Translations under genes and position numbers: made by a program
Notes under the pieces: model-generated
What the model saw: only the letters and a program-made list of their open reading frames with translations
What the model was told of the DNA's origin: nothing
Database searches by the model: none
Shown here: positions 6,544-28,920 of the stretch, in pieces
Position numbering within the stretch: position 1 is the stretch's first letter
Layout of the letters: every line of letters starts with the position of its first letter
Assembly: GCA_963707955.1 (NCBI GenBank)
Contig: OY970176.1
Location: forward strand, 2,048,001-2,112,000
DNA: 64,000 bases
Source of the DNA: Candidatus Bathyarchaeota archaeon
GTDB lineage: Archaea; Thermoproteota; Bathyarchaeia; Bathyarchaeales; Bathycorpusculaceae
Direction: 5' to 3'

Positions 6544-6897
6544 ATGCCCACTGACCGAAGAGGAGGATGGGTCTATTTGCCTCGTGTAAGCATGAAAAGG
6601 ATGGTTTGTAAACGCCTACAGAAGTGCAGGCGAATTCTTCAGATTGACACTCAGCAGATTCGCTTCAAGGTAATCAAAAAGCTTGAGGAAATGTTCGACT
6701 GCGCTCATGCTTTAAGTCAGAACACAGGTCTGGGTCTTCGCGAACGGCAGAAATGGGCAAGAATCGCGGCCTACATCGCTCAAACGATTAACAGCGTTTC
6801 GGCAGGATTCGACGAACAGAAGGTTAACCGTGAGCTTGACGAGTTAGAGAACCTTGTCAATCAAGCCAGAGCAAAGACGAAGGATGGAAAGGCTTAA
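6544..6897 (+). CDS. putative terminase small subunit
   Basis: Small helical protein overlapping the terL start; positional call only. Confidence 0.45.
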   Translation: MPTDRRGGWVYLPRVSMKRMVCKRLQKCRRILQIDTQQIRFKVIKKLEEMFDCAHALSQNTGLGLRERQKWARIAAYIAQTINSVSAGFDEQKVNRELDELENLVNQARAKTKDGKA

Positions 6898-8233
6898 GCG
6901 CGAGGTGCTCAAGCCTGAGGACGTTGCTCTTCCAAAAGATCCTGTTGAATTTGTGAAGGCCGTTTTCAATTTTAACCCAACAGACTACCAGGAGCGGCTT
7001 CTCAGAGACAAGAGCAAGCGAATAGTCGTGCGGTGGTGCCGTCAAGCTGGAAAAACAACGACTATCGCGCTGGGAGCAATCTGGTTCGGCTTGACCTATC
7101 CGAAAACGTTGACGCTCATCGTGGCGCCAAGCTTGAGGCAAAGCATGATAATGGGTGACTGTGTTCAGGATTTCCTTAACAGTCTACCCCAAGACCTTCA
7201 TGAGGCACTCATAGATAAGCAGCAGCGAACTGTCACGCGGTTCAAGAACGCCAGCAGAATCGTGATCCTGCCAAACTCGCCTCAGCTTCTGCGAGGTTAC
7301 ACAGCTCACAAAGTCGTACTAGAAGAGTGCAACTTTTTCCCTGCAGACGAGCTGATAGTTCACAGTGTCATCTACCCAATGCTTGCAACGACGGACGGTA
7401 CGCTCATCGCTGCGAGTACTCCTTGGAATAAAGACAGCATCTTTTACCGCATGTGCCAAAGCAACCAGTTCAGCAAGCATGTTGCAACGTGCGACGACGT
7501 CGTAAGAGCCGGCACCATCAAACAAGAATTCATCGACCAGATGCGTGCTGAACTTCCGTACGAACGTTTCCAAAGAGAATTCAAAGCAGAATTCATTGAA
7601 GATATCGACACTTGGCTCACCCAGAGCTTGATCGTAAGCTGCATTGACAGTCAATTGCAGCCCTACGATTTTCAGGACCGACCGAAGGGCGAGTTTTACG
7701 TCGGCATCGACTTCGGCAAAGAACAGGACTTCAGCATAGTCCTAGTAGCTGAGAAGTCTGGACCTACAGTACGAATAATTCATGTGCACAGGTTCCCGCT
7801 AAAGACGGAATACGCAAGCGTGATCGGCTACGTGAAAAGCCTCCAGGACCGCTGGCAAACCGTGAGGGCAGTTTACGCAGACATAACCGGCGTAGGGGGT
7901 TACATCGTCGAGGACATGGTCCGCAGCGGGATCCAAGGCGTGACCGGCGTAACCTTCACGGTGCAGTCGAAGGAAGAAATGGCCACGATCATGCGGGAAA
8001 AAATGCGGACAGCTGAGGTCAAGATTCCATACGTACCCGCGAGAAAACTGGAAGATGTCGATTTGACTGCTGAGTTGAACATTGAAAAGTATGAGTTGAT
8101 GAAGACTGGGCACATCAGGTTCAGCCATCCAGAAGGCGGCCACGATGACGTTTTCTGGTCTGCAGCCTTAGCTGTTTACGCTTCTGTCAAGGCGCCGCTG
8201 CCTGGAAGAGGCGCGTTCATGCTTCCGCATTAG
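6854..8233 (+). CDS. terL: terminase large subunit
   Basis: Walker A RQAGKT, Walker B VVLEE, STP coupling motif, nuclease GIDFG...D and HDD. Confidence 0.93.
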   Translation: MSIKPEQRRRMERLKREVLKPEDVALPKDPVEFVKAVFNFNPTDYQERLLRDKSKRIVVRWCRQAGKTTTIALGAIWFGLTYPKTLTLIVAPSLRQSMIMGDCVQDFLNSLPQDLHEALIDKQQRTVTRFKNASRIVILPNSPQLLRGYTAHKVVLEECNFFPADELIVHSVIYPMLATTDGTLIAASTPWNKDSIFYRMCQSNQFSKHVATCDDVVRAGTIKQEFIDQMRAELPYERFQREFKAEFIEDIDTWLTQSLIVSCIDSQLQPYDFQDRPKGEFYVGIDFGKEQDFSIVLVAEKSGPTVRIIHVHRFPLKTEYASVIGYVKSLQDRWQTVRAVYADITGVGGYIVEDMVRSGIQGVTGVTFTVQSKEEMATIMREKMRTAEVKIPYVPARKLEDVDLTAELNIEKYELMKTGHIRFSHPEGGHDDVFWSAALAVYASVKAPLPGRGAFMLPH

Positions 8234-8236
8234 AAG

Positions 8237-9631
8237 GTGTTGAAAGTGAGTTTCAGAGAGAGAGTTAAGAAAGGCTTTAATGCGATTCGCAAAGCTACTG
8301 GCAGGTTTACAGCTCAGAGACAAGTTCCGCCTGAGATTAGCAAGAAGCAGATCCAAGAAGAGATTCCTGTTACTTGGGGAAAAGACCCAACCCTCTTAGG
8401 CTACGTTAACAAGTACATCTTGAAAGCATCAGGCATCGGTTTCATCACTCCGCCCTACATGGCCTACTGGGAGCGAATCTGGGGCGCAACACCGATAGAA
8501 GACCTGCCGAAATACAAAGACATGTACACGTTCACGCCGTACATCAAAGCCTCCATTGATGTAACTATTAACCTTGCTTTGAGCAACGGGTTTGAACTCG
8601 AAGGCGCAGATGACGCTGTTCGAGAATGGCTCACGAACTGGCTTGATGAGCAGAACATCCTGCAAACGCTAAGGATTGTCGGGACAGACATGCTTGTCTC
8701 AGGGAACGCTTACCTAGAACTTTGCCGTGACGAAGACGATGGCACAATACAGTGGCTTAAACCATTAGACCCGGTGCACATGCGCGTTCGCCGGGATGCT
8801 TACGGCAACGTCTTCGGCTTCGTTCAACTTCTAACTTTTCCACCCGTAACGTTCACTGCTCAAGATATTGTTCATTTTCGCTGGGGTTCTAAGAGTTGGT
8901 GGTACGAGTACAGCTACGGCACAAGCCTACTGCGACCGCTTCTTCTCATTCAAGCACTAATAGACGATTTCCAGACCGACATGGCAACGATCATGAAAGT
9001 GTACACGAAACCGATGCTGGTCGTCCAAGCAGGTACGCCTGAGATTCCATGGGGAGATGCGCAGTTAAGCGCTCTTGTTCAGGCTTTTCAAGACAGGATG
9101 CCTGCGACAGACGTGTTCGTAAGAGGCGATGTCACCGCTAAAGTTCTGCCAAGTATGACCAAAGAGATAAACGTTCAATGGTGGCTCGACTATCTTCACG
9201 GGCAGCGTCAAGCCGTTTTAGGCGTTCCGAAGATTTTCCTAGGTGAAAGCGAAGGGACAAACCGCGCAACTGCTGAAATCGTGATGCAAGAATATGTCAC
9301 TAGACTAAGGATGCTTCAAGAGCTTATTGGAGATACGCTGGAAACTGACTTGTTTAAGCAGCTGGTTGAAAGCAAGTTCGGTGAAGGCGTCGAGATTCCG
9401 AAGGTCAAGTGGCGTCCGATTTGGGAGCCGACAGTACAGGAGAAAGCCGCTTACATGGTCGCGCTGGTACAGAACCAAATTGCAACGATACCTGAAGCAA
9501 GAGTAGCCCTAGGCCTACCGCTGGAGCCAGAACAAAGCGAAGGCACATTGCCTACAGCAAGCGGCGGAACTGCGCTCACCGGGCAGCCCGAGGAAAAGAA
9601 GCCTGTTGCTTTGCCTCTTGAAACGAAGTGA
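8237..9631 (+). CDS. portal protein
   Basis: After terL; GNAYLE, LKPLDP, DIVHFR, YGTSLL, LGVP, EARVALG. Confidence 0.9.
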   Translation: MLKVSFRERVKKGFNAIRKATGRFTAQRQVPPEISKKQIQEEIPVTWGKDPTLLGYVNKYILKASGIGFITPPYMAYWERIWGATPIEDLPKYKDMYTFTPYIKASIDVTINLALSNGFELEGADDAVREWLTNWLDEQNILQTLRIVGTDMLVSGNAYLELCRDEDDGTIQWLKPLDPVHMRVRRDAYGNVFGFVQLLTFPPVTFTAQDIVHFRWGSKSWWYEYSYGTSLLRPLLLIQALIDDFQTDMATIMKVYTKPMLVVQAGTPEIPWGDAQLSALVQAFQDRMPATDVFVRGDVTAKVLPSMTKEINVQWWLDYLHGQRQAVLGVPKIFLGESEGTNRATAEIVMQEYVTRLRMLQELIGDTLETDLFKQLVESKFGEGVEIPKVKWRPIWEPTVQEKAAYMVALVQNQIATIPEARVALGLPLEPEQSEGTLPTASGGTALTGQPEEKKPVALPLETK

Positions 9632-9906
9632 CTTCTTTGTCTCGCTACGCAGAGGCTGCCGCATACTACAGCCATTATGCCCAGCTTGCGCCTCTTCAAA
9701 AACCTGTAACGCATACTTGGGTCTTCACTCTAGTTGATGACAAAAAACTCTGCGAAAGTTGTGACGAGTTTCGCGGAGAATCATATGAACTTGCAGACCC
9801 AGCAGAGTTAGAAGAGGCTTTTCCGTATGGCGAGCAAGTTGACTCTGCAACTTTCGCCTGTAACATCCATCCAAATTGCCGTTGCATTATGGAGAGGGTG
9901 ACTTGA
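9628..9906 (+). CDS. minimal MuF/SPP1 gp7-like head morphogenesis protein
   Basis: CxxC plus HPNCRC motif, directly after portal. Confidence 0.7.
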   Translation: MTSLSRYAEAAAYYSHYAQLAPLQKPVTHTWVFTLVDDKKLCESCDEFRGESYELADPAELEEAFPYGEQVDSATFACNIHPNCRCIMERVT

Positions 9907-10139
9907 AACCTGAGAAACTCGTAACGATGCACTGCCCGAGCTGCGGGGCAGATTTCGACAAGCAGCCAATAATCATAATCAACCGTTCAAACGGGTCAAG
10001 CCACATGGAGGAGCATCTTCCGAAGAAGTGTAAATACTGCAAAACAGGCCTTGTCCGCAGCGTTACGAAGACGAAGACCACTTTTAAGTTTGGGAAACTC
10101 AATGCAGAAGATCGACAAAACGTTGGCATACCAGCTTAA
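9903..10139 (+). CDS. zinc-ribbon protein
   Basis: CPSC...CKYC. Confidence 0.45.
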   Translation: MKPEKLVTMHCPSCGADFDKQPIIIINRSNGSSHMEEHLPKKCKYCKTGLVRSVTKTKTTFKFGKLNAEDRQNVGIPA

Positions 10140-10641
10140 CAGCTTGGTGAACCAGAAGCCATATAACCAGCAGCATCCAGCAGCAGCATTCTGGCCTCGG
10201 ATGTCTTGTAGCGGGTTATGTCGCTTTACTCTTGTGATGCGGCGTTTCCATGTAAGCTGCTTCTGGTGTCGTCTCCGCAGGTTCTTCTATGGAAAACTAG
10301 ACAGATCAAAATATCACTTTAATCCAAAATTCGGCCCACTGATTGTGCCGAATGATGTGACTCTGAGAAGCATATTCAAGAAAGTCTATAAAGATAGAAC
10401 TTTTTTGATTCGGACTTCAAAAGGATTACAGGTGAAAAAAGTAAACCACGTATTGATGGATGAAAGGCCGGTCTACAATCTATGGGTTGATAATAATAGA
10501 CGGTTCAAACCTGTCAAAGACATCCTCTTTGATAAAGTTTTCAAGAAAATCGAAGAATTGGTAAATACTGAGAATCTTTCTTTTCCAAAGCAGCTTGAGT
10601 TACGCTATCTTTACAATGTAGCAGAAGCGTTGGCGAATTAA
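10102..10641 (+). CDS. hypothetical viral protein
   Basis: ORF in operon; start uncertain. Confidence 0.5.
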   Translation: MQKIDKTLAYQLNSLVNQKPYNQQHPAAAFWPRMSCSGLCRFTLVMRRFHVSCFWCRLRRFFYGKLDRSKYHFNPKFGPLIVPNDVTLRSIFKKVYKDRTFLIRTSKGLQVKKVNHVLMDERPVYNLWVDNNRRFKPVKDILFDKVFKKIEELVNTENLSFPKQLELRYLYNVAEALAN

Positions 10642-10642
10642 C

Positions 10643-10954
10643 ATGCCCGGCTTAGAAGAAGGTACAACAGTCTGGCGCTACAGAGTTCAAGACCGTGATA
10701 AGCTTGATAAGATGCGGGTCAAGGAACTTGGGAAAGGCGTAAAGATAACTCTCGGCCGCATTAAAGGCTCGCAGCGCTGGGAAATCGAGAACTATATGTT
10801 TGAGAAAAGCGCTTTCAAAACACGGGAAGAAGTACGGAAGTGGCTTGACTCTCACCTGAAGAGTGAGATCCGTAGCTTCCTTGACTTTAAAGCGTTTGAT
10901 GAGTGGCGTCGGCGGTTCATTAATGCTTACATGCAGATCAGCAAGATAGAATGA
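10643..10954 (+). CDS. hypothetical viral protein
   Basis: Starts 1 nt after the previous stop; RYRVQD...F.K..F.T.EE..KW pattern seen in phage head-region proteins. Confidence 0.65.
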   Translation: MPGLEEGTTVWRYRVQDRDKLDKMRVKELGKGVKITLGRIKGSQRWEIENYMFEKSAFKTREEVRKWLDSHLKSEIRSFLDFKAFDEWRRRFINAYMQISKIE

Positions 10955-11002
10955 CCTGACGAATAAATAAGGCAGGGCGAACAGAGTAGTGGTTGGTCGT
11001 GT

Positions 11003-11278
11003 ATGGAAGTGTTACCAGCAAAAGTCCCTCCTTCTGTTCTACTTCCTGACAATGAAGGGCATTTGGTCTATATCAACGTAACAAAGTGCGACAATTGCGG
11101 AGAAAACTTGGTTGACCGAGATGGCAACTTCAAATGGAAGACAGTTCAGATAATAGATGACGCAGTGAGACCTCTCTACTTATGTTCAGAAAAATGTAAA
11201 CGAAGCATGGAAGCAAAGATCAAAGACAATAACGGTCACTTTCCTAATGAGAAGCTGCGAATCGACAGCGTAGTGTGA
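11003..11278 (+). CDS. zinc-finger protein (CxxC...CSxxC)
   Basis: CDNCG...LCSEKC. Confidence 0.55.
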   Translation: MEVLPAKVPPSVLLPDNEGHLVYINVTKCDNCGENLVDRDGNFKWKTVQIIDDAVRPLYLCSEKCKRSMEAKIKDNNGHFPNEKLRIDSVV

Positions 11279-11305
11279 CAGCGAAGTTGGAAGGGTAGGT
11301 TATAC

Positions 11306-11548
11306 ATGATAATTGAGCAAGTCGAAGAAGCGATAAAGCTGTGTAAAGAAGCAGGGAGGGAGCCGATTGCTCTTGTCATTAATCCTAAAGTGTTGGATAA
11401 AATATACGAAGAGCTACGAAGGTCTACACAGCCAAACTTTCCAAGGGCGTACATAATGAAGCTTTTCGACTTAACGATAGTTGAGCATGTAAAGGCGAGA
11501 GATTTCTTTATCGTAGATAACAGAAGCTGGGCAGAGCAGAAATTCTAA
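11306..11548 (+). CDS. hypothetical protein
   Basis: 80-aa ORF with a purine-rich upstream sequence. Confidence 0.5.
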   Translation: MIIEQVEEAIKLCKEAGREPIALVINPKVLDKIYEELRRSTQPNFPRAYIMKLFDLTIVEHVKARDFFIVDNRSWAEQKF

Positions 11549-11601
11549 GTTCATCACAATCCAGCAAAGTATAGTGACCTAATCCATAAAAGATACTCAG
11601 C

Positions 11602-11795
11602 GAATAGAATAGTTGGCGACTACTGCTGGGAATCTTCCTGTGAGTGGCGCAGAGCACCTCCGTGTCTGGGATGTCGCCCGAAGATTCCTGGGGTAGCCAC
11701 TCTATCTATTCTCATCATAGTTACTGCTTGAAGCTACATTTTTTCCGTTCTCGAAGCCTTCTCCTCAGCGGTTTTGATGTGGCTTCAAGCAGTAA
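11602..11795 (+). ncRNA. candidate structured RNA (two long hairpins)
   Basis: Imperfect inverted repeat 11602-11711 (GGAATCTTC/GAAGATTCC core) and a 19-bp inverted repeat 11721-11739/11777-11795 with one G-U. Confidence 0.4.
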
Positions 11796-11817
11796 TAAAA
11801 ACTTTGGAAGTTAAAAA

Positions 11818-12258
11818 ATGAACTCTAATCGTGCACTGACCATAGTTGCTGTTATGCTTCTCTCATCAATCGTCGTAGGTCTTGCTCTCCAGTCTTTCAT
11901 GCGGCAAATCCCAAGCCTTGGAACAATTACTGCGGTCGGTGTAGGCGTCTTCAGTGATGCTGCCTGTACACAGAACGTGACAAGCGTAAACTGGGGAATC
12001 TTAACACCTGGGAGCATAACGAACTATCAAACTTACATCAAGAGCACAAGCAACATACCGATAACTCTGAGTCTAGGCACAGACTCGTGGAACCCAGCAA
12101 GTGCCCCGACTTACATAACGCTTTCTTGGAGCTACTCAGCAGGCGTAGTGATTCAGCCGAACGCTTCGCTTCCAGTGTCGCTTACTCTGACAGTCAGCTC
12201 AACTGTTACAGGGTTCACTTCATTCACTTTTGACATCGACATAACAGGCTCTGGTTAG
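11818..12258 (+). CDS. secreted/membrane-anchored beta-sandwich protein (pilin/TasA-like?)
   Basis: Signal peptide; VNWGILTPG...IKSTSNIPITLSL...FTFDIDITG. Confidence 0.6.
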   Translation: MNSNRALTIVAVMLLSSIVVGLALQSFMRQIPSLGTITAVGVGVFSDAACTQNVTSVNWGILTPGSITNYQTYIKSTSNIPITLSLGTDSWNPASAPTYITLSWSYSAGVVIQPNASLPVSLTLTVSSTVTGFTSFTFDIDITGSG

Positions 12259-12285
12259 GCCCCAGATAGTTAAGGTGTAAACAAA

Positions 12286-12678
12286 ATGAGTTTTGAAGCA
12301 AGAGTTTGGAGTACGAAAGAAGTCAATGATTTCCCAGATGGTTCCTTCGCATACATCGAGCCGGGTGGCAAGAAGGACGGCGAAGGCAAGACGATACCGA
12401 GAGGTTTGAGGCACTTTCCGTACAAAGACAAAAGCGGAAAACTTGATGAAGTTCACATAAACGCCGGGTTTTCATATCTCAGCAAAGCGAAGCTTCCAGT
12501 AGCTGCGAAGAAGCATATACATCAAACGCTAGTCAACGCTTGCAAGAAGCTTGGGAAAGAGCATAAGCCATGCAGCTTCCCAGGTTGCAAAGGCACTAGC
12601 CCAAAGAAGAGCATGCTTGAAGACAGTGAAGCCTTCTATGCCCTGCAAAGACGCGGAATGTACACGACTTTTCTCTAA
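12286..12678 (+). CDS. phage head-associated protein
   Basis: WST..VNDFPD.SFAYIEPGG...LRHFPYKD, a motif often found next to or fused with prohead proteases. Confidence 0.6.
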   Translation: MSFEARVWSTKEVNDFPDGSFAYIEPGGKKDGEGKTIPRGLRHFPYKDKSGKLDEVHINAGFSYLSKAKLPVAAKKHIHQTLVNACKKLGKEHKPCSFPGCKGTSPKKSMLEDSEAFYALQRRGMYTTFL

Positions 12679-12688
12679 GGTGTCCTTC

Positions 12689-13858
12689 ATGCAGCTGAAA
12701 TATTTCGTTCCCTTTAAAGCCCAAGAAGGCGTAAGCGCAGAGTTCGCGCTAAGAGAGAAACTGTTGAACATTGAAGGTCTCGCCATAGATACGAGCGTCA
12801 ACGCTAACAAATGGCAGGTGCCAGAAGAGGACCTTGACTTTTTCGTATCAACACTCATAAGTGCTCAGCTGCGAATCGATCATGCAGAAAGTGCCATGGC
12901 TGTTATCGGTAGAGTTCCTGAAAGCAAGAGGATCGGGAATACTGCTTGGTTCAGGGCTGAGATCGGTGATCTGCCGATAATTGAGAAAGTCCTGAGAGGC
13001 TACTTAACACACGTCAGCGTTCAAGTTGATAGCGATCAAGTAGAATGCAGCAAGTGTATGAAGCCCACGCGGAAAGAAGGAATGCTCGTGCACCTCTGCC
13101 CAGGCGCTTGGGAGATCGTCCATAAGCCGAAGGTGCGGGAACTTAGCATCGTAGCGAGTCCGGCTTATGAGAAGACTGTTTTTGCGCCAGTCGGTTTCGC
13201 TGCTGCCATGAATGAATCGCAGAAGATCGAGTTTCCATGTGCTCATTGTTCCCAGTTACTGCAAAGTAACGAAGATGTGGGTTCTAAGCGGAAGCTGCAA
13301 GAACCTGAAAACAAAAAGAGCGAAACAATGGAGGTGAAACCTTTGTCTGACAATGCTCAGGCGAAGGGTTCTCCACATCAAGCACAAGACGCAGGCATCG
13401 TAAACGTATCACCAGGTGAATCGGCTCCGCAGCAAGTTGAGTATCAGCAGATGATGGACCAACTGACAACTCTGGAAAACAAGATCAAGCAAACGCCGTC
13501 AATCACAGACGCAGAGAGTGCTGCCATGACGAAGCGCGTCGCAGACCTTGAAGCAGAAGTCGCTAAGAGGGCAACGAAGAGGGCGCTCAGTAAGAAGATT
13601 ACTGAGCTAAGCAGGAAACTTACCGAAAGCGCAGAAAGCGCTGAAGTAGCTGGAGACGGCGCTGGTCAAGACGGTCAAGACGGAAATGGCGGAGACGGTG
13701 ACGGCCAGGATGGCGATGGAAAGCAGAAAGCAGAAGCGAAGCGCGCAAGCGGCCACGGAATCGTCGCAGTTGATGAAGCGAACAAAGATATTCTCGGCAA
13801 CTACGCTTGGTTCAAAGACATCATGAAGGCCAGCCAGAAGCTTAAAGGCATGAAATAG
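12689..13858 (+). CDS. prohead maturation protease fused to scaffold
   Basis: IDH, HVSVQ, ELSIVASPAY; CxxC...HxC insert; coiled-coil C-terminus with a G/D/Q-rich tract. Confidence 0.82.
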   Translation: MQLKYFVPFKAQEGVSAEFALREKLLNIEGLAIDTSVNANKWQVPEEDLDFFVSTLISAQLRIDHAESAMAVIGRVPESKRIGNTAWFRAEIGDLPIIEKVLRGYLTHVSVQVDSDQVECSKCMKPTRKEGMLVHLCPGAWEIVHKPKVRELSIVASPAYEKTVFAPVGFAAAMNESQKIEFPCAHCSQLLQSNEDVGSKRKLQEPENKKSETMEVKPLSDNAQAKGSPHQAQDAGIVNVSPGESAPQQVEYQQMMDQLTTLENKIKQTPSITDAESAAMTKRVADLEAEVAKRATKRALSKKITELSRKLTESAESAEVAGDGAGQDGQDGNGGDGDGQDGDGKQKAEAKRASGHGIVAVDEANKDILGNYAWFKDIMKASQKLKGMK

Positions 13859-15296: not shown

Positions 15297-15764
15297 ATGT
15301 CTCTGGTATTCAACTTGTCAAAAGGCTTGCTTTACGGCATAACGCTCGGCATACTCTTCGGCCTGTCCATATTCCTGATAGGCACAGTTGCTTCTAACAT
15401 GGGCTTCATTACTATAGCGCCAACGACTCTCGCAGCGCTCGTATTCGCAAACGGCATACTCGGCGGCATAGCGATGGAGTATGGCAAATGGCTCAAGAAC
15501 CAGCATAACGGCGGCTTGATCTTCGGTTTGGCAAACGGTTTCTTGTCAGGTGTTGTGCTCGGCATATACTTCGGTCTAGCAGTCTTCTTGATGGCTGGGG
15601 CTATCTTTGCTTTAGGATGGCTCACTTTAACACCTGTCCAGCTAGCCAGCCTATCATTCGCAGTTTGCATCCTGATGTTCGTCACATACGAGTACAGCAA
15701 CTGGCTTGATGCTCAAAATGCTACTGCAGCGGCCGCAGCGACTACGCCTCCAGTTAAGCAGTAA
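15297..15764 (+). CDS. 4-TM membrane protein with internal duplication
   Basis: Two homologous halves ending EYGKWL / EYSNWL. Confidence 0.7.
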   Translation: MSLVFNLSKGLLYGITLGILFGLSIFLIGTVASNMGFITIAPTTLAALVFANGILGGIAMEYGKWLKNQHNGGLIFGLANGFLSGVVLGIYFGLAVFLMAGAIFALGWLTLTPVQLASLSFAVCILMFVTYEYSNWLDAQNATAAAAATTPPVKQ

Positions 15765-15844
15765 GAGAGCTTAGCAAAAAATCTCCTTTCCCCTTTTTAG
15801 TTGAAAATTATATCGGGTTATACCCATTATCTCGTGGTGAAAAC

Positions 15845-18909: not shown

Positions 18910-18913
18910 GCAC

Positions 18914-21705: not shown

Positions 21706-22740
21706 ATGCTGTTGTGTGAACAAGAAAGAAACTTAGCTGCAGAGAAAAGTCTCATCAATGACCCTACTTCATATCAGACAAGCTCAACAAGTCTTGTGAC
21801 GATACACGATTACGGTAATATCACTGTCCCAGCGGGCGGAAGCTTAGTTATCTTCAGCGCTGACTCTTTATGTAGTCTTACAGCCGGGATTAGCGGAGTT
21901 ATCGCGATCCAGGTTGGCAGCCTCATGTATGCCGCAGGCTATTGCTTTGACGCTAACAGCGGGCCTGCTAACACAATTGGAACTAAGCATCTCAGCTCCT
22001 TAATCTGGCTCCCAGCAGGAACATATGACGTTTCAGTCGTGGGCCTCACTGCTGTAGCCTTAAGCGTAGGAAACATGAAAGTTGGACTCGTCAATTTCAA
22101 TGATGTTCAGCCGTCAGCACTAGCATACTACACGAGCGCGACAAACTCGATACAGCTAACAGTTCCAAATCGTACCCTCCCAGTTGGAAGCTTGAACCAA
22201 GCAGTGTTCGCAATCAATATCTGTACAAGTGGGACTTTAGGATCAACTTTCAACCTTACTGTTGACGGCGTAGCTCATACTGATATGGATGAAATTAGTG
22301 GCGTTTCAGGAACTGAGCCGATTAACGGGTATTACATTTACAAGCTTTACATTCCGCTTTCTGTCGGCGTTCAGCATACTGTTGCCTTCACGTTGTCAAG
22401 CGGAGCTGTCGCTTACGTCTCCGTTGTCGCGTGCCCGTGGATACTGGCTGCTGCAGGAAGAGGCCACCAACCCTTCTTGTTGAGTTTCTCACAGTTAAGC
22501 ACTTTCTACATAAATATTGGGAGCCTCTTCGCTGACGGAACAAAAAACTGTTACATAGGCATATCTAAAAGCATTTCATACGGGGCAAGCGATTATTATG
22601 CTTCAGGAACAGTCCTCGGCGGGGTTCTTTCTTTCAGTTACACTTTCACTTCCTTAAACGTGATAATCGCATCCTTAACAATGGACTCATCAATTCTTCT
22701 CGGCGCATGCGTGGAAAATATCGGAGTGGACATTCAGTGA
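21706..22740 (+). CDS. minor tail/baseplate protein
   Basis: After TMP; S/T/G-rich beta composition. Confidence 0.6.
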   Translation: MLLCEQERNLAAEKSLINDPTSYQTSSTSLVTIHDYGNITVPAGGSLVIFSADSLCSLTAGISGVIAIQVGSLMYAAGYCFDANSGPANTIGTKHLSSLIWLPAGTYDVSVVGLTAVALSVGNMKVGLVNFNDVQPSALAYYTSATNSIQLTVPNRTLPVGSLNQAVFAINICTSGTLGSTFNLTVDGVAHTDMDEISGVSGTEPINGYYIYKLYIPLSVGVQHTVAFTLSSGAVAYVSVVACPWILAAAGRGHQPFLLSFSQLSTFYINIGSLFADGTKNCYIGISKSISYGASDYYASGTVLGGVLSFSYTFTSLNVIIASLTMDSSILLGACVENIGVDIQ

Positions 22741-24269
22741 GCGTCTATAAAAACACTCCTCCGCCACTTGTAGACTCATCAGTCTTGAACATAGTTAAGA
22801 GATACATGGCTCCTGAAAAAGTAGCAGGATACATAATATTGATAGACCCAGATTCAGGAACATATCAAGGAATTAACGGTCACACAGGAGCAACAGACTT
22901 CGGCGGACCGTCAAACGCTGGAGGAATATGGGGAAATGACGTTGGCCAGCTCTTGCAGGCCTGCCTGAAGGCAGCTCCTGGAAAGAAAGTCTTCATCAAA
23001 AATGGCGTTTACTATGCTATTACGTGCATCTCAGGCGTTAATCAGGCTGATTTGATAATTGAAGGAGAAGAGATGGGCGCCTTCGACAACTTCAAAGAAG
23101 GCACAACATTAATCTTCAACGGCTCTGCAGGGAAAGTGTTTATTGATGGCTTAGGCTGCCGAAACGTAACGCTTAGAAACATCAAAATCAAGAATCAAAG
23201 CTCAGTTAGCAACCTCATAGGCGTAAGAGTGGGCGATAACACAAACTCTGCAAATAAGACAAAATGTAGCAGCTGGCTTGACGTTGTCATTGACAGCTTC
23301 CCAAACGGGCTCCAAGGCGCTACATATGGACCCGATGACTCAACATTCATAAACTGCTACTTCGGAAACTCATCCATAGTTGCCGTCAATAATCTAAGTA
23401 GCCAGTGCAAGTTTCTCGGCGGCACATTTTACAGCAGTGCAATAGGCTATCAATTTGGTAGAGCTGCTGGTGCAAGTGCGGCTGATTCTGGTGCAGAGTT
23501 CTATGGTACAGTCTTCAGTGGCTGCGCAGTACCATTTGAGATCATAGGCGGCCAGAACATGAATGTTCTCTACTGTGCTGGAGTATGGGTAGAGAATGCA
23601 AACACAATGATACTGAGAGTAACAAATGCCTCAACAGGAATCTACATCGGCTCAATAATCTTTGATGGATGCACGATGACGACTAACAGCACCACATTCT
23701 TCGACCTGAGTGGCAGAAACCTAACTCTTGAAGTTCGCGGCGGCACGCTATATCCGACGAACCTTACAGGAGCCAACATCATAACAAATGGCCAATATGG
23801 TACTGTTCAAAAAGTCAGAATAAGCCACGTCATAGGAAATAACCTAGTCACGTTTGTCGATTCAAACTCTGGCCTCAGAGGCTTTGACAGGGCAATAGTC
23901 CCGCTAGTAGACGACAGCTTTGGATACGGGTACATCCCAGCAGTAGGAACAACTTATTCTCCTTACACCCAAGCCCACCCATTGCCTAATGAACAGTTTG
24001 AAGTTGTTAAAGCAACCATAATCTATAGGTGGAATCCCGGCTCTGCATCTGGCAAAGTCAGATTGGAATGGTCTGTTGGTGGGGTTGCTACGGGATTTGG
24101 AGAATGTGCTCCAGCAGATGGTTCTGGCAGTAACAGGTATGACAAGATAGATGTTAGTAACTTTGTAAGGAACTATACTGGTGATTTGGGAGATGTGAAT
24201 CTGCAAGTTGCAGATGATGGGACACACCCTGTTATCCTCTTCTTGGCATGGTTAGTCTATGAATATTGA
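22737..24269 (+). CDS. tail spike with right-handed beta-helix (pectate-lyase-like)
   Basis: LLQACL...KVFIKNGVY...IIEGE N-cap followed by N/G/S-rich rungs. Confidence 0.7.
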   Translation: MSVYKNTPPPLVDSSVLNIVKRYMAPEKVAGYIILIDPDSGTYQGINGHTGATDFGGPSNAGGIWGNDVGQLLQACLKAAPGKKVFIKNGVYYAITCISGVNQADLIIEGEEMGAFDNFKEGTTLIFNGSAGKVFIDGLGCRNVTLRNIKIKNQSSVSNLIGVRVGDNTNSANKTKCSSWLDVVIDSFPNGLQGATYGPDDSTFINCYFGNSSIVAVNNLSSQCKFLGGTFYSSAIGYQFGRAAGASAADSGAEFYGTVFSGCAVPFEIIGGQNMNVLYCAGVWVENANTMILRVTNASTGIYIGSIIFDGCTMTTNSTTFFDLSGRNLTLEVRGGTLYPTNLTGANIITNGQYGTVQKVRISHVIGNNLVTFVDSNSGLRGFDRAIVPLVDDSFGYGYIPAVGTTYSPYTQAHPLPNEQFEVVKATIIYRWNPGSASGKVRLEWSVGGVATGFGECAPADGSGSNRYDKIDVSNFVRNYTGDLGDVNLQVADDGTHPVILFLAWLVYEY

Positions 24270-24284
24270 GGAAAGTGACTGTAT

Positions 24285-24731
24285 ATGGGTAGACTAATAG
24301 ACATTGACTTATTTCCATTGATTGATAACACATTCAGCTTAGGTGAAGTTGGCAAGACATGGGCAGGCATCTATGTCCAGAAGCTATACGTCTATAGTCA
24401 ACTTATCGTGTCAGGTACTGTTGGGAGCAACCTTACTCCAACTTCTGATAACAGTTATGATCTAGGTCTTGACAGTCTCAGATGGTCAATGGTACGAGGA
24501 GTCTTAGGCAATTTTGATAGCCTAGGGATTGGCGGAACTGCAGTTATCACTAGTGGTAGAGTTCTTGAAAACGTCAGCATAGATGCGGGTCTAATTACAA
24601 GCGGCGTATTCAGTACAAGTAGAATACCTGTCTTGGACAGTTCAAAGATGACGGGAGCATCAGGTTCATTCACGACTGTTGATGGGAAGACTGTTACAGT
24701 AACAAATGGAATAATCACGAGTATAGCTTAG
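24285..24731 (+). CDS. tail fibre-like protein
   Basis: P..DN.YDLG..SLRW-type repeats; GSFTTVDGKTVTVTNGIIT C-terminus. Confidence 0.6.
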   Translation: MGRLIDIDLFPLIDNTFSLGEVGKTWAGIYVQKLYVYSQLIVSGTVGSNLTPTSDNSYDLGLDSLRWSMVRGVLGNFDSLGIGGTAVITSGRVLENVSIDAGLITSGVFSTSRIPVLDSSKMTGASGSFTTVDGKTVTVTNGIITSIA

Positions 24732-24740
24732 GGTGAGAAT

Positions 24741-25124
24741 ATGAGCTATCAAGTTTCAGCAGGAACAGCAGCTCTCATAGTCATCGATTGGCAGGAGATT
24801 GCGACAAGCGCGTTCACAGAGACTGACAGTTGGAAAGTCAGCGCAGGCATCGGCTATTACGTGCATCCGACACGAGTTTACGGCAAGTATCACCAGTACG
24901 CGCTTACATGTATCGAGCAGGGCGTTACGTGGGCAAACAGTGCAGTTCCATACTTGTTCGGGATCCAAAGCGCTGGGACAGCAATTCTTCTCCAGTGCAA
25001 CCATCCTTTTAGGCCGCTCAACGTTAGCGTTGTCGTTGCAAAATGCACGATGAACCCGCCGTTCGAGGCAGGACAAAACATTCGCAAATTCATCGTAGAC
25101 TTCAGAGAATACATCACGCCATAA
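24741..25124 (+). CDS. putative tail-tip protein
   Basis: Position; 127 aa. Confidence 0.45.
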   Translation: MSYQVSAGTAALIVIDWQEIATSAFTETDSWKVSAGIGYYVHPTRVYGKYHQYALTCIEQGVTWANSAVPYLFGIQSAGTAILLQCNHPFRPLNVSVVVAKCTMNPPFEAGQNIRKFIVDFREYITP

Positions 25125-25138
25125 GAGAGGTATAAAAG

Positions 25139-25360
25139 ATGAGCACATGGGGCGGCGAAGCAACTCAGCAAGCGATTCTCAGCGCCATAACTAGCGCTCC
25201 GCCTGGGTTTCCTGTAGCACGCGTTAACAAGATCGCGTTCAGCTACAACGCAGACGGAAGCATCAACACGATTCAGTTCTTTGACGTGAACAATAATCTT
25301 CTGTTCACGCTAACTTTCGCTTACAGCGCTGGCAGCGTTCTTAGCATAACGAGAAGCTGA
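25139..25360 (+). CDS. small virion protein
   Basis: FSYNADGSINTI...LTFAYS beta-hairpin pattern. Confidence 0.5.
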   Translation: MSTWGGEATQQAILSAITSAPPGFPVARVNKIAFSYNADGSINTIQFFDVNNNLLFTLTFAYSAGSVLSITRS

Positions 25361-25364
25361 TAAC

Positions 25365-26810
25365 ATGGTTGGGACATGGACTTATGATCCCGTTAATAAC
25401 ATCATAACCGTAACTGGCGGCACTTCTGGCGCTCCAGTTGGGTTTATTGACGCTTGGAACGCAGATAAAGCTGGGACCCGCACTCTCTTAGCGACAATAG
25501 CATGTGGCTCTGGAATGTCTCTAACGACGCCGGTAAAGCCTACAGATAAACTTGCATTGAAACTAACTTTCGTCGTCTCGGGTTTCTCAGTTGCTGGAGT
25601 CATCTCGGTTAACGGGTTGGACGCGTGGGGAAACGCAATCTCTGAGAATATCACGGTAAACGCGAACGGCAGCTATACGACAACACTGTACTATTCCTCT
25701 ATCAACGCTGCTGGAATCAGTTGCACGGGCACGTACAGCATAAGCGTAACTCAGCCGCAGTGGGGCGTCGTCTGGAAGCGAAGCACAAACTCATTCCTGT
25801 TTGACTGTGGAATCGTATTCGGTGATGGAACAACAGCAACAGTCTTCACAGACTATGCTAAGCAGATAACTTTCTCGGCAACAGCCATAAGCGCAAACGG
25901 CAAGAACTGGATTGCTGATACAGCTAATGCAACGATTACGTTTGGACAGTGCGCTGATACAAGCAAGAAAACAACATATAACGGGATCACGTTTAGCATC
26001 TTAGACGCAGCACATTATGGCTATTTAGGAACTAGCTCAGTTGCAGTCGCATACTTTTACAGTTGCGAGTTCTGGTCAGCAGGAGGATCACTATTCATCC
26101 GTGGAACGAGAATATGGAACTGCCTTCTCGACAGCAACAGCGACCTGAATCAAGTAAACAGCGGCGGAGACATCGACACAATCGTAGCGACAAACGCATA
26201 CCGTGGAGTGCGCTGTTATGCTGGAGTTTCGATCGCGCGAGTTTTCCTTATCGGCTGCACATATGGCATCTTTGCTGGCGGAAGTGCAGGACCATACACA
26301 ATTTCAAATCCTTACACACGATATTGTTCAAATACGCTTTACTTGAGCTATCTTGTTTCAGACCTCTACCTCGTCAACTGGGACAGCGATACTTACGCTT
26401 GCGCTGGCGACCATTCCACCGGAACTGTTTATCGACAGTACACACTTGATCTGCTCGTAACCGACAAGGCAGGCAACCCAATCTCAGGCGCAACCGTCAC
26501 AGTCACAGATGTAAATGGAACGCTGGTCTTTTCCGTTACAACTCAAGCAGACGGGACAATAGTTACCCAGACGATAACTCGCATCACGTACGGCGGGACC
26601 AATGGCGGCACAGTTACAGACTACGCTCCGCATGCCCTGACCATAATCAAGGCGGGATACCAGACATACGTGAAAACCTTCGTGCTTTCAGCAAAGACGA
26701 GCTGGGAGATTAAGCTCGCAAAGGCCCAAGCCCTACTGTTAGACTCTGGGAATCCCATTGTGAACCTCTCACCAGCAGATCCAGAAAACAAGATGGTGTT
26801 AGCGTTATGA
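25365..26810 (+). CDS. adhesin-like virion protein (beta-helix plus carboxypeptidase-regulatory-like Ig domain)
   Basis: VTDKAGNPISGATVTV...TQADG...IIKAGYQ. Confidence 0.65.
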   Translation: MVGTWTYDPVNNIITVTGGTSGAPVGFIDAWNADKAGTRTLLATIACGSGMSLTTPVKPTDKLALKLTFVVSGFSVAGVISVNGLDAWGNAISENITVNANGSYTTTLYYSSINAAGISCTGTYSISVTQPQWGVVWKRSTNSFLFDCGIVFGDGTTATVFTDYAKQITFSATAISANGKNWIADTANATITFGQCADTSKKTTYNGITFSILDAAHYGYLGTSSVAVAYFYSCEFWSAGGSLFIRGTRIWNCLLDSNSDLNQVNSGGDIDTIVATNAYRGVRCYAGVSIARVFLIGCTYGIFAGGSAGPYTISNPYTRYCSNTLYLSYLVSDLYLVNWDSDTYACAGDHSTGTVYRQYTLDLLVTDKAGNPISGATVTVTDVNGTLVFSVTTQADGTIVTQTITRITYGGTNGGTVTDYAPHALTIIKAGYQTYVKTFVLSAKTSWEIKLAKAQALLLDSGNPIVNLSPADPENKMVLAL

Positions 26811-27196
26811 AAAAGAGAATAGTTGATGAAATCAAAAGTCTGAACCTAGGCGACTTGGTCCTTGTCGAATGGTGCGATGCGAGCACGGGCAAGAGTCTCG
26901 GTTCAGGCAGTAACATTGACGTCCCCGTTGAAAGCTGGGGCATATACTTGGCTGTCTTGGGGGCAAAAGCGAAGCACATCATTCTCGCCCAGAACAATTT
27001 TCGATACGCGGACGGCTTGTACGACCTCGACTATACGGCCATACCGCTCCACTGGAGCGTAAGCGTAACGGTTCTCGAGAAGAATCATGTGCGGCTAAAA
27101 GAAGCGCAGGAGATGCTTAACAGCTTCCTCACGGGTGGACGTAGAACTCTAGGCCAGAAGAAGCAGCAGCGAAGGGTGCTGAATCATCATGCCTGA
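26807..27196 (+). CDS. hypothetical protein (SH3/Sm-like fold possible)
   Basis: GDLVLVEWCDA...SWG...IILAQ...AIP. Confidence 0.6.
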   Translation: MKKRIVDEIKSLNLGDLVLVEWCDASTGKSLGSGSNIDVPVESWGIYLAVLGAKAKHIILAQNNFRYADGLYDLDYTAIPLHWSVSVTVLEKNHVRLKEAQEMLNSFLTGGRRTLGQKKQQRRVLNHHA

Positions 27197-27440
27197 CTGG
27201 GTGAAAAGGGCTCTCACAAGTAAGCGTTGTAAAAGAGGGCCCAGACGCTTTGACATTGTCGAGGAGCCAAATGAGAAGCTTGTTTACACCGTCAAATTTG
27301 CACTTGGCATGACAGGCTTCTTGTCAGGCGTTGAGGTTACAAACATCATTGTTCTGCACGTTTGGAACAGTGAGGTCTTCGCTGCAATCACCGGCTTAAT
27401 CGGCACGGTCACAGGCGTTCTAATCGGGCAAAGAGCTTAG
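27189..27440 (+). CDS. small 2-TM protein (holin-like)
   Basis: Basic N-terminus, two hydrophobic helices, end of tail module. Confidence 0.5.
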   Translation: MPDWVKRALTSKRCKRGPRRFDIVEEPNEKLVYTVKFALGMTGFLSGVEVTNIIVLHVWNSEVFAAITGLIGTVTGVLIGQRA

Positions 27441-27486
27441 CGCCCAATCGCTTTTTCAGCATTTAACTTTGGAGTCAGTGGATACC

Positions 27487-28920
27487 ATGCGAAGACACGA
27501 GTTCTTCCACATCAGAAAGTTCCGCAGAACTTACGACCGGGCCCGGAACACGTTTTCCTTCAACATTTCGTATAACACAGCGGTAGCCTTAACGCCCAGA
27601 ACCACGTCTGTCGCTGAAGCGTTTGGACTCGGCGTTGACGAGGAGCACACGTTCACCGTCCTGGATGCCGAGATGAAAATAAACCCCGCAGACATCGTGT
27701 ACATAACAGGCGACTCTGGCAGCGGAAAGAGCGTCCTATTGCGAGCCATTAAGAAGGACCTCGGAGACATTGCAGTCGACGTCGCGGACATCCAGGTCCG
27801 TCGAGATAAGCCGCTGATCGAGACAGTTGGTAAGACGGTTGAAGAGGGTCTTGAGCTGCTGGCTAAGGTGGGCCTGGGCGACGCTTTCCTTTTTCTTCGG
27901 TCCTACGACCAGCTCAGCGACGGGCAAAAGTACAGGTATCGCCTGGCCAAGCTTGTTGAAAGCGATAAGCAGTGGTGGATCCTCGACGAGTTTGCGGCTA
28001 CCTTGGACCGAGACACGGCGAAGATCGTGGCTTTCAACCTTCAGAAACTTGCACGCCAACAGGGCAAAGCAGTGTTAGCAGCGACTACACACATGGACCT
28101 GTTTGAAGACTTGCATCCAAGCGTCCACGTTCACAAAAGGTTTGGGAAAGAGATCACCATCAAATACTTCCCAAACGGCCCTGCCACAGAGTGCACTTTG
28201 GTCAAGGAAATGCGCGTTGAAGAGGGTTCTACGGAAGATTGGCGGGCCTTGGCAGGCTTTCACTACCGAAGTCACAGAATAAGCGCGCCGCGCAAGATTT
28301 TCTGTTTGAAGCGTGGCGATGAGCTCTGCGGGGTGATCGTTTACTGTTATCCGCCTTCTGCAAGCTTTGGGCGAAGGATTGTCCTTTCAAGAATGAGCAT
28401 GCGGGAACTGAATGAGAAGCTGAGTGTCATCAGCAGGGTTGTTGTCCATCCAAAGTATAGAACGGTCGGCTTAGGTGTTAAGCTTGTAAGGGAGACGTTA
28501 GCCCTTGCTGGAACAGACTATGTTGAAATGTCAGCCGTCATGGCAAAGTATAACCCGTTTGCGGAAAAGGCCGGAATGAAGAGAATAGTGGAACAACACC
28601 CGCCAAAAGAAGCTGAAAAGATCATGGATGTTCTTGAAGGCCTCGGGTTTAACACTCAACTGCTCGGCAGCACAAACCACGTGTTGAAGACGCTTCAAGC
28701 GCTCAACGAAGAGGGCGTAGCGAAAATAAGAGAAACCTTAGCCACGCAGCGGCATCCACGCTTTCTGAAGAGTTTCTCTAATGACCTTCCTTTTGGCACG
28801 AGAGATGCTTATCAGAAGGAAATAGCGAACGCAAGCCTGGAGAAGCTTGCAAGCCTGATCAAAATCTGCGGCTTTCTGATGCAGACGAAGGTCTATCTGT
28901 TCTGGCAAAAAGAAAAGTGA
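27487..28920 (+). CDS. ABC-type ATPase fused to GNAT acetyltransferase (COG2401-like)
   Basis: GDSGSGKS, LSDGQ, WILDEF, TTH; GNAT HYRSH and RVVVHPKYRTVGLG. Confidence 0.88.
   Translation: MRRHEFFHIRKFRRTYDRARNTFSFNISYNTAVALTPRTTSVAEAFGLGVDEEHTFTVLDAEMKINPADIVYITGDSGSGKSVLLRAIKKDLGDIAVDVADIQVRRDKPLIETVGKTVEEGLELLAKVGLGDAFLFLRSYDQLSDGQKYRYRLAKLVESDKQWWILDEFAATLDRDTAKIVAFNLQKLARQQGKAVLAATTHMDLFEDLHPSVHVHKRFGKEITIKYFPNGPATECTLVKEMRVEEGSTEDWRALAGFHYRSHRISAPRKIFCLKRGDELCGVIVYCYPPSASFGRRIVLSRMSMRELNEKLSVISRVVVHPKYRTVGLGVKLVRETLALAGTDYVEMSAVMAKYNPFAEKAGMKRIVEQHPPKEAEKIMDVLEGLGFNTQLLGSTNHVLKTLQALNEEGVAKIRETLATQRHPRFLKSFSNDLPFGTRDAYQKEIANASLEKLASLIKICGFLMQTKVYLFWQKEK

Follow-up and report, generated by a model that had tools for sequence, protein, structure and literature searches.

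The locus analysed here raises the question of whether a long block of head and tail genes, set in an archaeal chromosome with no visible means of integration or replication, belongs to a gene transfer agent (GTA) kept by its host or to a virus that entered the chromosome. It lies in a window of 64,000 nucleotides (positions 2,048,001 to 2,112,000 of contig OY970176.1, GenBank assembly GCA_963707955.1) from Candidatus Bathyarchaeota archaeon, whose genome is called G000 hereafter, and the first-pass annotation had singled it out as a candidate GTA-like or domesticated particle, with a decaying provirus as the fallback. Our data point to a provirus in this Bathyarchaeia chromosome, running from window position 5622 to about 39064 (~33.4 kb), which is probably an integrated temperate tailed archaeal virus, most likely a stranded one without an integrase, rather than a GTA.

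The co-oriented head-tail block that drew attention to the locus is real, and from 6289 or 6544 to 28920 the + strand carries TerL, portal, capsid, neck and tape measure genes. The long operon opens with an 83-aa gene (6289..6540, +), with homologues in 44 of the 82 other loci compared by blastp, followed by a 117-aa small-terminase candidate (6544..6897, +), so named from its position directly before, and overlapping, the large terminase; the candidate has homologues in 47 of these loci and matched no Pfam or PHROG family above threshold. The large terminase TerL (6854..8233, +; PHROG 2, E 1.9e-38; Terminase_6N, E 4.2e-11) and the portal (8237..9631, +; Phage_portal, E 1.2e-14; Portal_Mu, E 2.7e-9; PHROG 9232, E 3.6e-26) are followed by small head-module genes with full-length homologues in relatives (9628..13858, +), including a 92-aa MuF-like gene (9628-9906, +; Phage_Mu_F, E 2.9e-5, below cut-off) and a scaffold/protease candidate of ~389 aa (about 12689-13858, +), its putative role taken from position. 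A cement/scaffold-like protein (13869-14255, +; Phage_cement, E 1.2e-5) precedes the HK97-type major capsid protein (14266-15159, +; Phage_capsid_4, E 2.4e-10; PHROG 1650, E 5.3e-14), which is 89-91% identical to the C6 and C7 copies of the sister genome G007. The capsid protein matched no GenBank phage, and TerL reached at most 30% identity there. Large terminase, portal and HK97-fold capsid genes stand in one module, the combination that marks Caudoviricetes-type viruses.

Connector, neck and proximal tail genes (15297..19443, +) are conserved over their full length in relatives and have roles suggested by gene order; a neck/tail-completion protein (Neck1; 17428-18000, +; PHROG 5, E 2.3e-13) is among them. 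Beyond the tape measure lie putative distal tail, tail-tip and fibre genes (21706..27440, +), of which 21706-22740 is conserved in the same position in G007 and G009 at 36-39% identity. The ORFs at 22707-24269 and 24285-24731 had no homologue in any of the 82 other loci, the former (520 aa) also having no relative in a close-relative search of IMG/VR, and 25365-26810 resembles a prealbumin/Ig-like domain at scores below cut-offs. No ORF had a Pfam or PHROG match to a tail sheath protein. Overall, the head-tail gene set, packaging included, is complete; 32 of the 35 + strand ORFs in 6289-28920 have homologues, mostly full-length, in the 82 other loci, and no structural gene besides the tape measure is truncated relative to them. 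The predicted virus is of the long-tailed, sheath-less, Caudoviricetes type, with a Mu-like head module.

The tape measure gene (19790..21687, +; PHROG 58, E 5.5e-18) had been read as a sign of decay, and in the letters of the window it is indeed split into three ORFs (19790-21013, 20910-21332 and 21361-21687; 407, 140 and 108 aa). The contigs of all four public runs, at depths of 5-31.5, lack a single letter at each of 20965 and 21275, and when both extra letters are omitted a single ORF of 631 aa is restored, which aligns over residues 1-626 with the 596-aa tape measure of a relative. Moreover, the three pieces are collinear with, and fall in one frame of, the 596-aa ORF in locus L044. The four runs come from one study, possibly including the source sample, and are not independent of the window; the comparison with them covers positions 19500-39400, and in these 19.9 kb the window differs from them by three indels and six substitutions. 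The two tape-measure frameshifts are assembly errors, and because of this the structural module shows no decay; after the two omissions the tail module has an intact tape measure.

The element does not end with this block at 28920, as first annotated, but extends to about 39064. At its left end (5622..5663), the match to the closest relative, G007:C3, breaks off at 5622, and positions 4086-8076 of locus L013 align to window 9619-5622 at 86% (blastn); outside it, the window carries Ig-like membrane proteins and a RIO-like kinase where G007 has polysaccharide-synthesis genes. Just inside lies a divergent 139-aa gene, a putative lysogeny regulator (5664..6083, -), which is 93% identical in G007:C3, has homologues or partial homologues in seven of the 82 other loci (blastp; several of these loci overlap one another) and has a 71% paralogue at 565 kb in G000. 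It looks RHH-like by eye only, and that earlier label could not be confirmed: the protein has no Pfam match, PDB sequence searches with it and with the right-end protein gave nothing below E 0.1, and its AlphaFold model, built from a five-sequence alignment, was unusable (pLDDT 47.8). At the right end, a 195-aa gene (38367..38954, -) is shared with G007:C7, where it comes after a recombinase pair; its residues 1-129 are 79% identical to L022, and homology to G007:C7 spans window 38311-38981 and 39021-39064.

The last gene of the head-tail block (27469..28920, +), previously taken for a receptor-binding protein, encodes a fusion of an ABC-type ATPase and a GNAT acetyltransferase (ABC_tran, E 2.1e-10; Acetyltransf_1, E 1.1e-4; PHROG 11143, E 2.3e-34). 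It is 92-94% identical in both G007 copies and present in 34 of 61 related genomes, adjoins TerL in most loci, and falls in atlas clusters that are mostly viral. The ABC-ATPase/GNAT gene is a hallmark of the virus family, tied to its terminase.

A low-GC accessory arm (28921..38310; GC 41.5%), which run X1 joins to the structural module at an even depth, is made up of small, cassette-like genes, several of which resemble PD-(D/E)xK nucleases by eye. The arm includes a RusA-like Holliday junction resolvase (31948..32331, +; RusA, E 2.2e-5, above cut-off; PHROG 140, E 1.5e-6) and a predicted BsmI-like type IIS restriction-modification pair (33638..37446, +), formed by an 864-aa double N6/N4 methyltransferase (33638-36232, +; N6_N4_Mtase, E 1.8e-35, in two regions; PADLOC MTase_II, E 3.6e-94) and, overlapping it by 4 nt, a predicted 405-aa endonuclease (36229-37446, +). 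The model of the latter (pLDDT 86.7) was matched by Foldseek to BsmI (PDB 9f38, chain 9f38_A; E 4.6e-10, probability 1.00, TM 0.54 on the query). It would share the BsmI fold and comes after a fused two-domain methyltransferase, although sequence identity is 12%, its length is 405 against 676 aa, and BsmI is only partly covered (TM 0.35 on the target). Homologues at 42-57% identity are listed under bacterial names in their source records. G007:C7 has only two tyrosine recombinase genes where the window has this arm, and a foreign defence island that replaced the integrases was considered; this view was softened, as the conserved leader of its cassettes is shared with the left arm of the viral record G061. 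The arms of relatives are low-GC too (43-47%), and because of these and of the leader in G061 the accessory arm probably represents the variable region of the virus itself.

The absences noted at the outset were all borne out. No window ORF had a Pfam match to MCM, primase, polymerase or Orc, PF00589 was unmatched in six frames across the window, and the window contains no tRNA. The longest direct repeat between both ends is 13 nt, and words common to 4100-6300 and 28900-39500, in either direct or inverted orientation, do not exceed that length. Furthermore, a relative's integrase found nothing in the window better than E 0.03 (tblastn), a whole-genome search with both recombinases of G007:C7 gave no match within the window, and neither end holds a PF00589 fragment of a split (SSV-type) integrase. 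The nine PF00589 matches of G000 lie at 157-854 kb, outside the window; the serine recombinase family Resolvase (PF00239) is unmatched anywhere in the genome, and rve (PF00665) is unmatched in the window, its four matches in G000 all being elsewhere. Rfam gave no match over the whole window, and a crude script looking for spaced exact 18-mers picked up only repeat-protein genes in G000 and no CRISPR array. This copy has neither the own integrase and flanking att repeat of a site-specifically integrated provirus nor the DDE/rve-type transposase of a Mu-like transposable virus, and the missing integrase is the only visible defect of the element. As for replication, the accessory arms of two integrase-bearing relatives (CheckV 100% complete) gave no replication-gene match either, and because of this the lack of recognisable replication genes says little either way.

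The first-pass annotation had suggested surveying related genomes for the cluster, and ours found a patchy distribution with no conserved locus. Of 61 related genomes, 37 have TerL; within the genus it occurs in four of ten, one of these four being a different, 34%-identity type. G007 has two copies of TerL and G032 has nine. In G001 (~91% nucleotide identity) the kinase and YHS genes that flank the element lie 3 kb apart and the element is absent between them. The G007 relatives, with TerL 79-92% identical, sit at other loci. One (C16+C6, TerL 79%) has a terminal 463-aa tyrosine integrase beside the host nrdD gene and is flanked by a 26-bp repeat that is single in G000 (609775-609800), beside tRNA-Pro(CGG). 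The closest one (C3+C7, TerL 92%) has two PF00589 genes directly after its ABC/GNAT gene, and its left flank is a polysaccharide-synthesis cluster, unlike the flank of the window; the same repeat word search at its junctions gave nothing longer than 10 nt. The record G061 (38.3 kb, CheckV 100%) carries three integrases and lies directly against tRNA-Ser, PF00589 was matched at E<=0.01 in four of five IMG/VR records tested, and TerL is 75-92% identical to IMGVR_UViG_3300038425_000597, _000588 and 3300032069_000027. These relatives are integrating proviruses, equipped with tyrosine recombinases and seated at different chromosomal sites.

A second copy in the genus, G009:C20, had no PF00589 match on its 150-kb contig; beyond TerL, ABC/GNAT and L044 segments, no orthologues of this integrase-less cluster were found among the loci, and its flanks did not map to one site in G000. 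A degraded relative at 284-300 kb in G000 consists of fragments only. Divergence of the element exceeds that of the host: measured to the G007 copies, dS runs from 0.39 for TerL to 1.20 for the portal, and is 0.19-0.37 for flanking host genes. It is also mosaic, the capsid protein being closer to the copy at the other locus. The low dN/dS expected of a GTA was found (0.06-0.19), and is equally expected of circulating viruses.

We propose that the element entered by site-specific recombination, as its relatives do, and that its recombinase was then lost or never carried. The mode of entry is taken from the relatives because this copy is without integrase, tRNA and flanking repeat, and loss or lack of the recombinase is suggested by the closest relative, which has two recombinase genes exactly at the position of the accessory arm. 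Without a recombinase the copy would be unable to excise itself and would be stranded in the chromosome, where the divergent 139-aa gene probably acts as repressor of the long rightward operon; on derepression, particles could still be built from the locus. A still-active temperate virus, with a recombinase acting in trans or of an unrecognised kind and with replication by host machinery, is an unlikely reading. All structural genes are intact, and the arm is like that of integrase-bearing relatives in its low GC and in its content (Holliday junction resolvase, methyltransferase, nucleases); G000 does have PF00589 matches elsewhere. Its best matches to the recombinase pair of the nearest relative, however, are only 21-26% identical. 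Besides, neither a serine recombinase nor an rve transposase is present in the window, the largest uncharacterised protein of the arm is predicted to be a BsmI-like endonuclease and no recombinase, and no excision joint was seen in the comparison with reads over 19500-39400.

That the host has retained the provirus for its particles, as an early domestication or as a copy that packages neighbouring chromosomal DNA in place because it cannot excise, and that this recurs in Bathyarchaeia, as G009:C20 might suggest, seems improbable to us. A GTA-like or otherwise domesticated locus, in which the host keeps the structural genes and particles transfer host DNA, possibly packaged in place from the stranded copy, is improbable. 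Between 4.2 and 39.2 kb there is an intact head-tail set with no integration or replication genes recognised, the genus contains a further cluster without integrase, G009:C20, dN/dS is low, and a young domesticated locus would equally show an intact structural module without integrase. A GTA locus would, however, be inherited vertically at a conserved place and diverge in step with its host, and this is not what we found: the element is absent from G001, has other flanks in G007 and lies elsewhere in G009, it diverges in a mosaic manner and further than the host does, its arm is typically viral with its own restriction-modification system, and the low dN/dS does not discriminate. The GTA proposal is unsupported because close homologues sit in integrase-carrying proviruses at varied sites, patchily distributed in the genus. 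The fallback of a provirus stands, without the frameshifts given as its reason; a dead, decaying provirus, with a tape measure truly broken in the sequenced strain, is hardly credible. The three ORFs read from the window letters would favour it, but none of the four runs carries that version and the omissions restore one ORF; the remaining structural genes show no truncation against their homologues, and the truly degraded relative in G000 looks different. Of the original observation, then, the head-tail block and the absences hold, the tape-measure breaks, the receptor-binding label and the end at 28920 do not, and the RHH label is unconfirmed.

The stranded provirus can be set beside several known systems. 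In bacteria, cryptic or stranded prophages and PBSX-like defective particles do not excise, and particles may still form. The present element differs in being archaeal and, known from its genes alone, is at most a putative particle maker. Head-tailed viruses and proviruses of Bathyarchaeia, with the named families Fuxiviridae and Kunpengviridae, have been described from metagenomes (PMC10848311; PMC11705971) and, as outlined there, share with it the host class, the HK97-type capsid, terminase, portal and tail genes; the relatives of the element have tyrosine integrases and integrate beside tRNA genes, whereas this copy has no integrase. Against Kunpengvirus, as outlined in PMC10848311, the element and its close relatives show no MCM or polymerase genes. 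GTAs, such as RcGTA and the VTA of Methanococcus voltae, are reviewed in PMC11841831 and, in the outline given there, likewise consist of a head-tail cluster without replication or integration genes that resembles a defective prophage, but RcGTA-type loci pass vertically and evolve together with their hosts (PMC11841831), whereas our element is patchy and mosaic. It also differs from GTAs in its mobile-provirus relatives and ~10 kb of viral accessory genes. With Mu-like head modules (e.g. Pseudomonas phage B3, TerL 24% identity) it shares Portal_Mu and Mu F-like matches and a terminase of the same broad type; unlike Mu-like transposable phages, the window has no DDE transposase, and the relatives use tyrosine integrases with a flanking repeat.

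We know of no archaeal gene transfer agent with a known gene cluster, and a real candidate would matter; the present locus does not hold up as one. In this group, the absence of recognisable replication genes alone cannot support a GTA call and, as the artefact described here warns, single-letter frameshifts in this genome are poor ground for inferring decay. The element is one of a widespread family of tailed viruses that integrate in Bathyarchaeia of soil and sediment, a family with a conserved ABC-ATPase/GNAT gene linked to the terminase.

Homology to the closest relative, on contig C3 of the congeneric genome G007, stops at window position 5622, and homology to contig C7 of the same genome breaks off at 28915, restarts at 38311 and ends at 38981, with 44 nt more at 39021-39064. 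On these alignments, the element would extend from 5622 to about 39064 (33.4 kb) in the single-contig source genome (G000, 2.35 Mb; window, C1:2048001-2112000). In G001, of the same genus, the flanks are about 91% identical and the kinase and YHS genes are separated by about 3 kb that encode small winged-helix and membrane proteins; therefore, compared with G001, the 34 kb of the window are an insertion. The stretch 4100-5622 (1.5 kb), with genes for two Ig-like membrane proteins, is specific to G000. Short multi-copy sequences are found close to both element ends (5400-5446 and 38938-39006); an end motif of 27-40 nt has about nine copies in G000 and many across four other congeneric genomes, and one of about 65 nt has further copies at 53110-53178, 59094-59162 and G000 2315537.

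The co-oriented head-tail block described in the first-pass annotation was recovered, since every plausible gene at 6289-28920 is on the + strand and family scans identified the large terminase (TerL, 6854-8233), portal (8237-9631), a small MuF-like gene (9628-9906), a cement/scaffold-like protein (13869-14255), the HK97-type major capsid protein (14266-15159), a neck/tail-completion protein (17428-18000) and the tape measure (19790-21687). Upstream, a 139-aa gene (5664-6083, - strand) is divergently transcribed; the RHH character first assigned to it was not confirmed by Pfam or PDB sequence searches. Since no sheath protein was matched in the family scans of the window, the particle would probably be long-tailed and non-contractile. 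Among 82 other loci compared (several mutually overlapping), homologues were found for 32 of the 35 + strand ORFs of the block, full length in most cases, the exceptions being 11306-11548, 22707-24269 and 24285-24731, and no truncated structural gene was seen. ORF 16300-17151 carries a 218-aa N-terminal extension absent from relatives.

By family scans, the last gene of the block (27469-28920, + strand) encodes not a receptor-binding protein but a fusion of an ABC-type ATPase with a GNAT acetyltransferase. This ABC/GNAT fusion is the most strongly conserved protein of the virus family, being 92-94% identical in the two G007 copies (TerL identity, 92% and 79%). It was found in 34 of 61 related genomes (E<=1e-30), in most such loci at most about 250 nt from TerL by coordinate comparison, and Atlas clusters sharing the ABC and GNAT domain pair are viral for the most part.

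As the window reads, the tape measure falls into three ORFs (407, 140 and 108 aa), each in a different frame, and these frameshifts had been regarded as a possible sign of decay. In either G007 copy it is a single 783-aa ORF, and the three pieces are collinear within one frame of a 596-aa ORF of the IMG/VR locus L044, with frame changes at about 20966 and between 21264 and 21361. We aligned Logan contigs of four public metagenome runs, from one study that may include the source sample, to window 19500-39400. All four runs (depths 31.5, 8.1, 6.1 and 5.0) lack a letter at 20965 and another at 21275, and the version of the window was present in none. With both letters left out, a single 631-aa ORF starts at 19790, whose residues 1-626 align with residues 1-590 of the L044 protein; the tape measure is thus not broken, and the reported frameshifts are artefacts. 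A further single letter is omitted at 29642 in the same contigs, and six A>G or T>C substitutions (20213, 21469, 23719, 25438, 26242 and 34660) were each shared by three or all four runs; therefore, the window assembly carries consensus errors, in what looks like a systematic pattern. Elsewhere in the window, 48997-60964 is a tandem direct duplication with a period of 5984 nt (48997-54000 and 54981-59984 are 99.94% identical, gapless), which may be real or an assembly artefact.

The accessory arm (28.9-38.3 kb) has a GC content of 41.5%, against 47.8% in the structural block and 47.9% in the genome. It encodes small proteins that resemble PD-(D/E)xK nucleases by eye, a membrane protein, RusA (31948-32331), a 171-aa protein, a 326-aa protein with a DUF5655-like end and a weak PADLOC PDC-S18 match, and an 864-aa double N6/N4 methyltransferase whose gene overlaps by 4 nt that of a 405-aa protein. 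The latter was the largest arm protein without a prior assignment, and its model (24 sequences; pLDDT 86.7) matched the type IIS endonuclease BsmI (9f38_A; Foldseek E 4.6e-10, TMq 0.54). From this predicted fold, the 405-aa and 864-aa proteins would form a restriction-modification system, with neither a replication nor an integration function. The BsmI methyltransferase is a two-domain protein.

Accessory arms of relatives are similar in make-up, with Holliday-junction resolvases, C5 methyltransferases, Vsr, HhH-GPD and an HD protein, and have a GC content of 43-47% against 49-50% in their own structural blocks. Two arm genes share a conserved 5' leader of about 50 nt; it ends in a strong ribosome-binding site directly 5' of ORFs 29767 and 31948, and is partly present before 31274. 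At 30189 and 30546, the ORF ends are followed by a conserved tail, about 30 nt long, that contains a short palindrome, and window 29690-31970 has a cassette-like build. A few more leader and tail copies occur in G000, including 1120.9-1122.2 kb and 2138.2-2139.8 kb, and metagenome-run contigs join leader and tail across different contents. The single IMG/VR copy of the leader stands in the left arm of the related viral record G061, before a gene with weak homology to ORF 29767. From this and the make-up of the relatives' arms, the arm is probably a variable region that belongs to the virus itself. Arm and structural block are contiguous and of equal depth (31.5 and 30.1) in run X1.

The absences first reported, of an integrase, tRNA, replication genes and a terminal repeat, stand, since all re-tested searches of the window were without a match. 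There is no tRNA in the window, a search of the element ends for flanking repeats gave nothing above 13 nt, and no window ORF matched the MCM, primase, polymerase or Orc families. The tyrosine recombinase family PF00589 (six frames, E<=0.01) had no match within the window, the nine matches of G000 all lying at 157-854 kb; Resolvase had none in G000, and the four rve matches in G000 are all outside the window. The integrase of G007:C6 gave only E 0.03 at best against the window by tblastn. The two recombinases of G007:C7 had no match inside the window and no close homologue in G000, where the best matches are only 21-26% identical.

The relatives are mobile, integrating proviruses. G007 holds two copies, each broken over two contigs at a shared repeat. 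In C16+C6 (TerL 79% identical), a left arm of unassigned genes is followed by the structural block, ABC/GNAT and an 11-kb accessory arm, with a 463-aa tyrosine integrase directly beside host nrdD. Both flanks map to G000 609.7 kb, beside tRNA-Pro(CGG), with an overlap of 26 bp (609775-609800); therefore, G000 has the empty site, and these 26 bp are duplicated at the provirus ends. The other copy, C3+C7 (TerL 92%), shares its left end and a right-end 195-aa gene with the window, is flanked on the left by a polysaccharide-synthesis cluster, and carries, at the exact place of the window's accessory arm, an overlapping pair of PF00589 genes (493 and 421 aa). The same pair follows ABC/GNAT in G061 (38,287 bp; CheckV 100%), and after it come a displaced ABC/GNAT 3' fragment (aa 405-480, 75% identity), a further arm, a third integrase and, at the end, tRNA-Ser. 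The pair, directly after ABC/GNAT at L022:3642-6385 (G007:C7) and L084:9996-12604 (G061), could be an independent small element that targets the end of that gene.

PF00589 was matched at E<=0.01 in four of five IMG/VR records tested (three above the cut-off). Both types are represented among the IMG/VR records with a completeness rating of 100%. Across the 61 related genomes, TerL has an integrase 15-29 kb downstream on its own contig in G012:C38, G012:C15, G032:C37 and G032:C20 at least, a lower bound from 150 of 352 matches listed. A further copy in the genus (G009:C20, 104740-123128; L016:9740 to L017:8128), of about 18 kb, has a shorter tail region, a 385-aa tape measure and host-like flanks on both sides; the whole 150-kb contig had no PF00589 match.

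The locus had been proposed as GTA-like or domesticated, and the hallmarks of GTAs named in PMC11841831 include domestication, vertical inheritance, a lack of replication genes and random host DNA in small particles. The lack of replication genes was borne out, but it lost its value as a pointer: a Pfam scan of ORFs outside the structural blocks of G007 C16+C6 and G061 recognised none either, matching only winged-helix proteins, methyltransferases, nucleases and an HD protein, and since both relatives bear integrases, such an absence says nothing on domestication. The dN/dS of element genes is low (0.06-0.19), and purifying selection is expected for a GTA and a virus alike. The proposal is not supported, given a patchy TerL, mosaic divergence above that of the host and relatives that are integrase-bearing proviruses at other sites. 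TerL was matched in 37 of 61 related genomes and in four of ten of the same genus (G002, 68%; G007, 92% and 79%; G009, 66%; G001, a different type at only 34%), with nine matches in G032 alone. Two genomes from other families of the order (G038, 48%; G049, 47%) have a TerL closer to that of the window than do most genomes from other genera of the window's family (37-46%). TerL identity is 41-93% at 39 IMG/VR loci, and 20 of the 21 records of close TerL relatives are labelled Bathyarchaeia/Bathyarchaeota, the other being Candidatus Acidoferrum. G000 also encodes another large terminase, of a different type (31-34% identity), at C1:1286717-1288132, and this one is present with the same identity in G001 and G026.

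Against the G007 copies (Nei-Gojobori counting, Jukes-Cantor correction), dS was 0.39 for TerL (C3), 1.20 and 1.16 for portal (C3 and C16), 1.06 for capsid with C7 and 0.64 with C6, a copy at another locus, 0.71 for the fibre and 0.39-0.43 for ABC/GNAT, against 0.19-0.37 for flanking host genes. The element has thus diverged more than its host and unevenly along its length; the nearest relative switches gene by gene, and among the loci compared genes 9628-11278 match best the IMG/VR loci L026 and L027, not G007. Such a mosaic is that of a recombining virus pool and not of a single locus passed on vertically. What real decay looks like in G000 is shown at 284-300 kb, where fragments of a badly degraded relative lie among three integrase matches; what is left at C1:284000-300000 comes from the scaffold-like gene (fragments, 69%), the distal tail gene (69%, full length) and the 83-aa gene. 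The element copy is intact yet without an integrase. In sequence, a young domesticated locus would look the same as a recently stranded provirus; the former seems improbable. Head-tailed viruses and proviruses of Bathyarchaeia have already been described, for instance in PMC10848311 and PMC11705971, the latter defining complete proviruses by an integrase, a direct repeat and a tRNA. Unusual only in lacking an integrase, the element is a tailed provirus of Bathyarchaeia, of a known kind.
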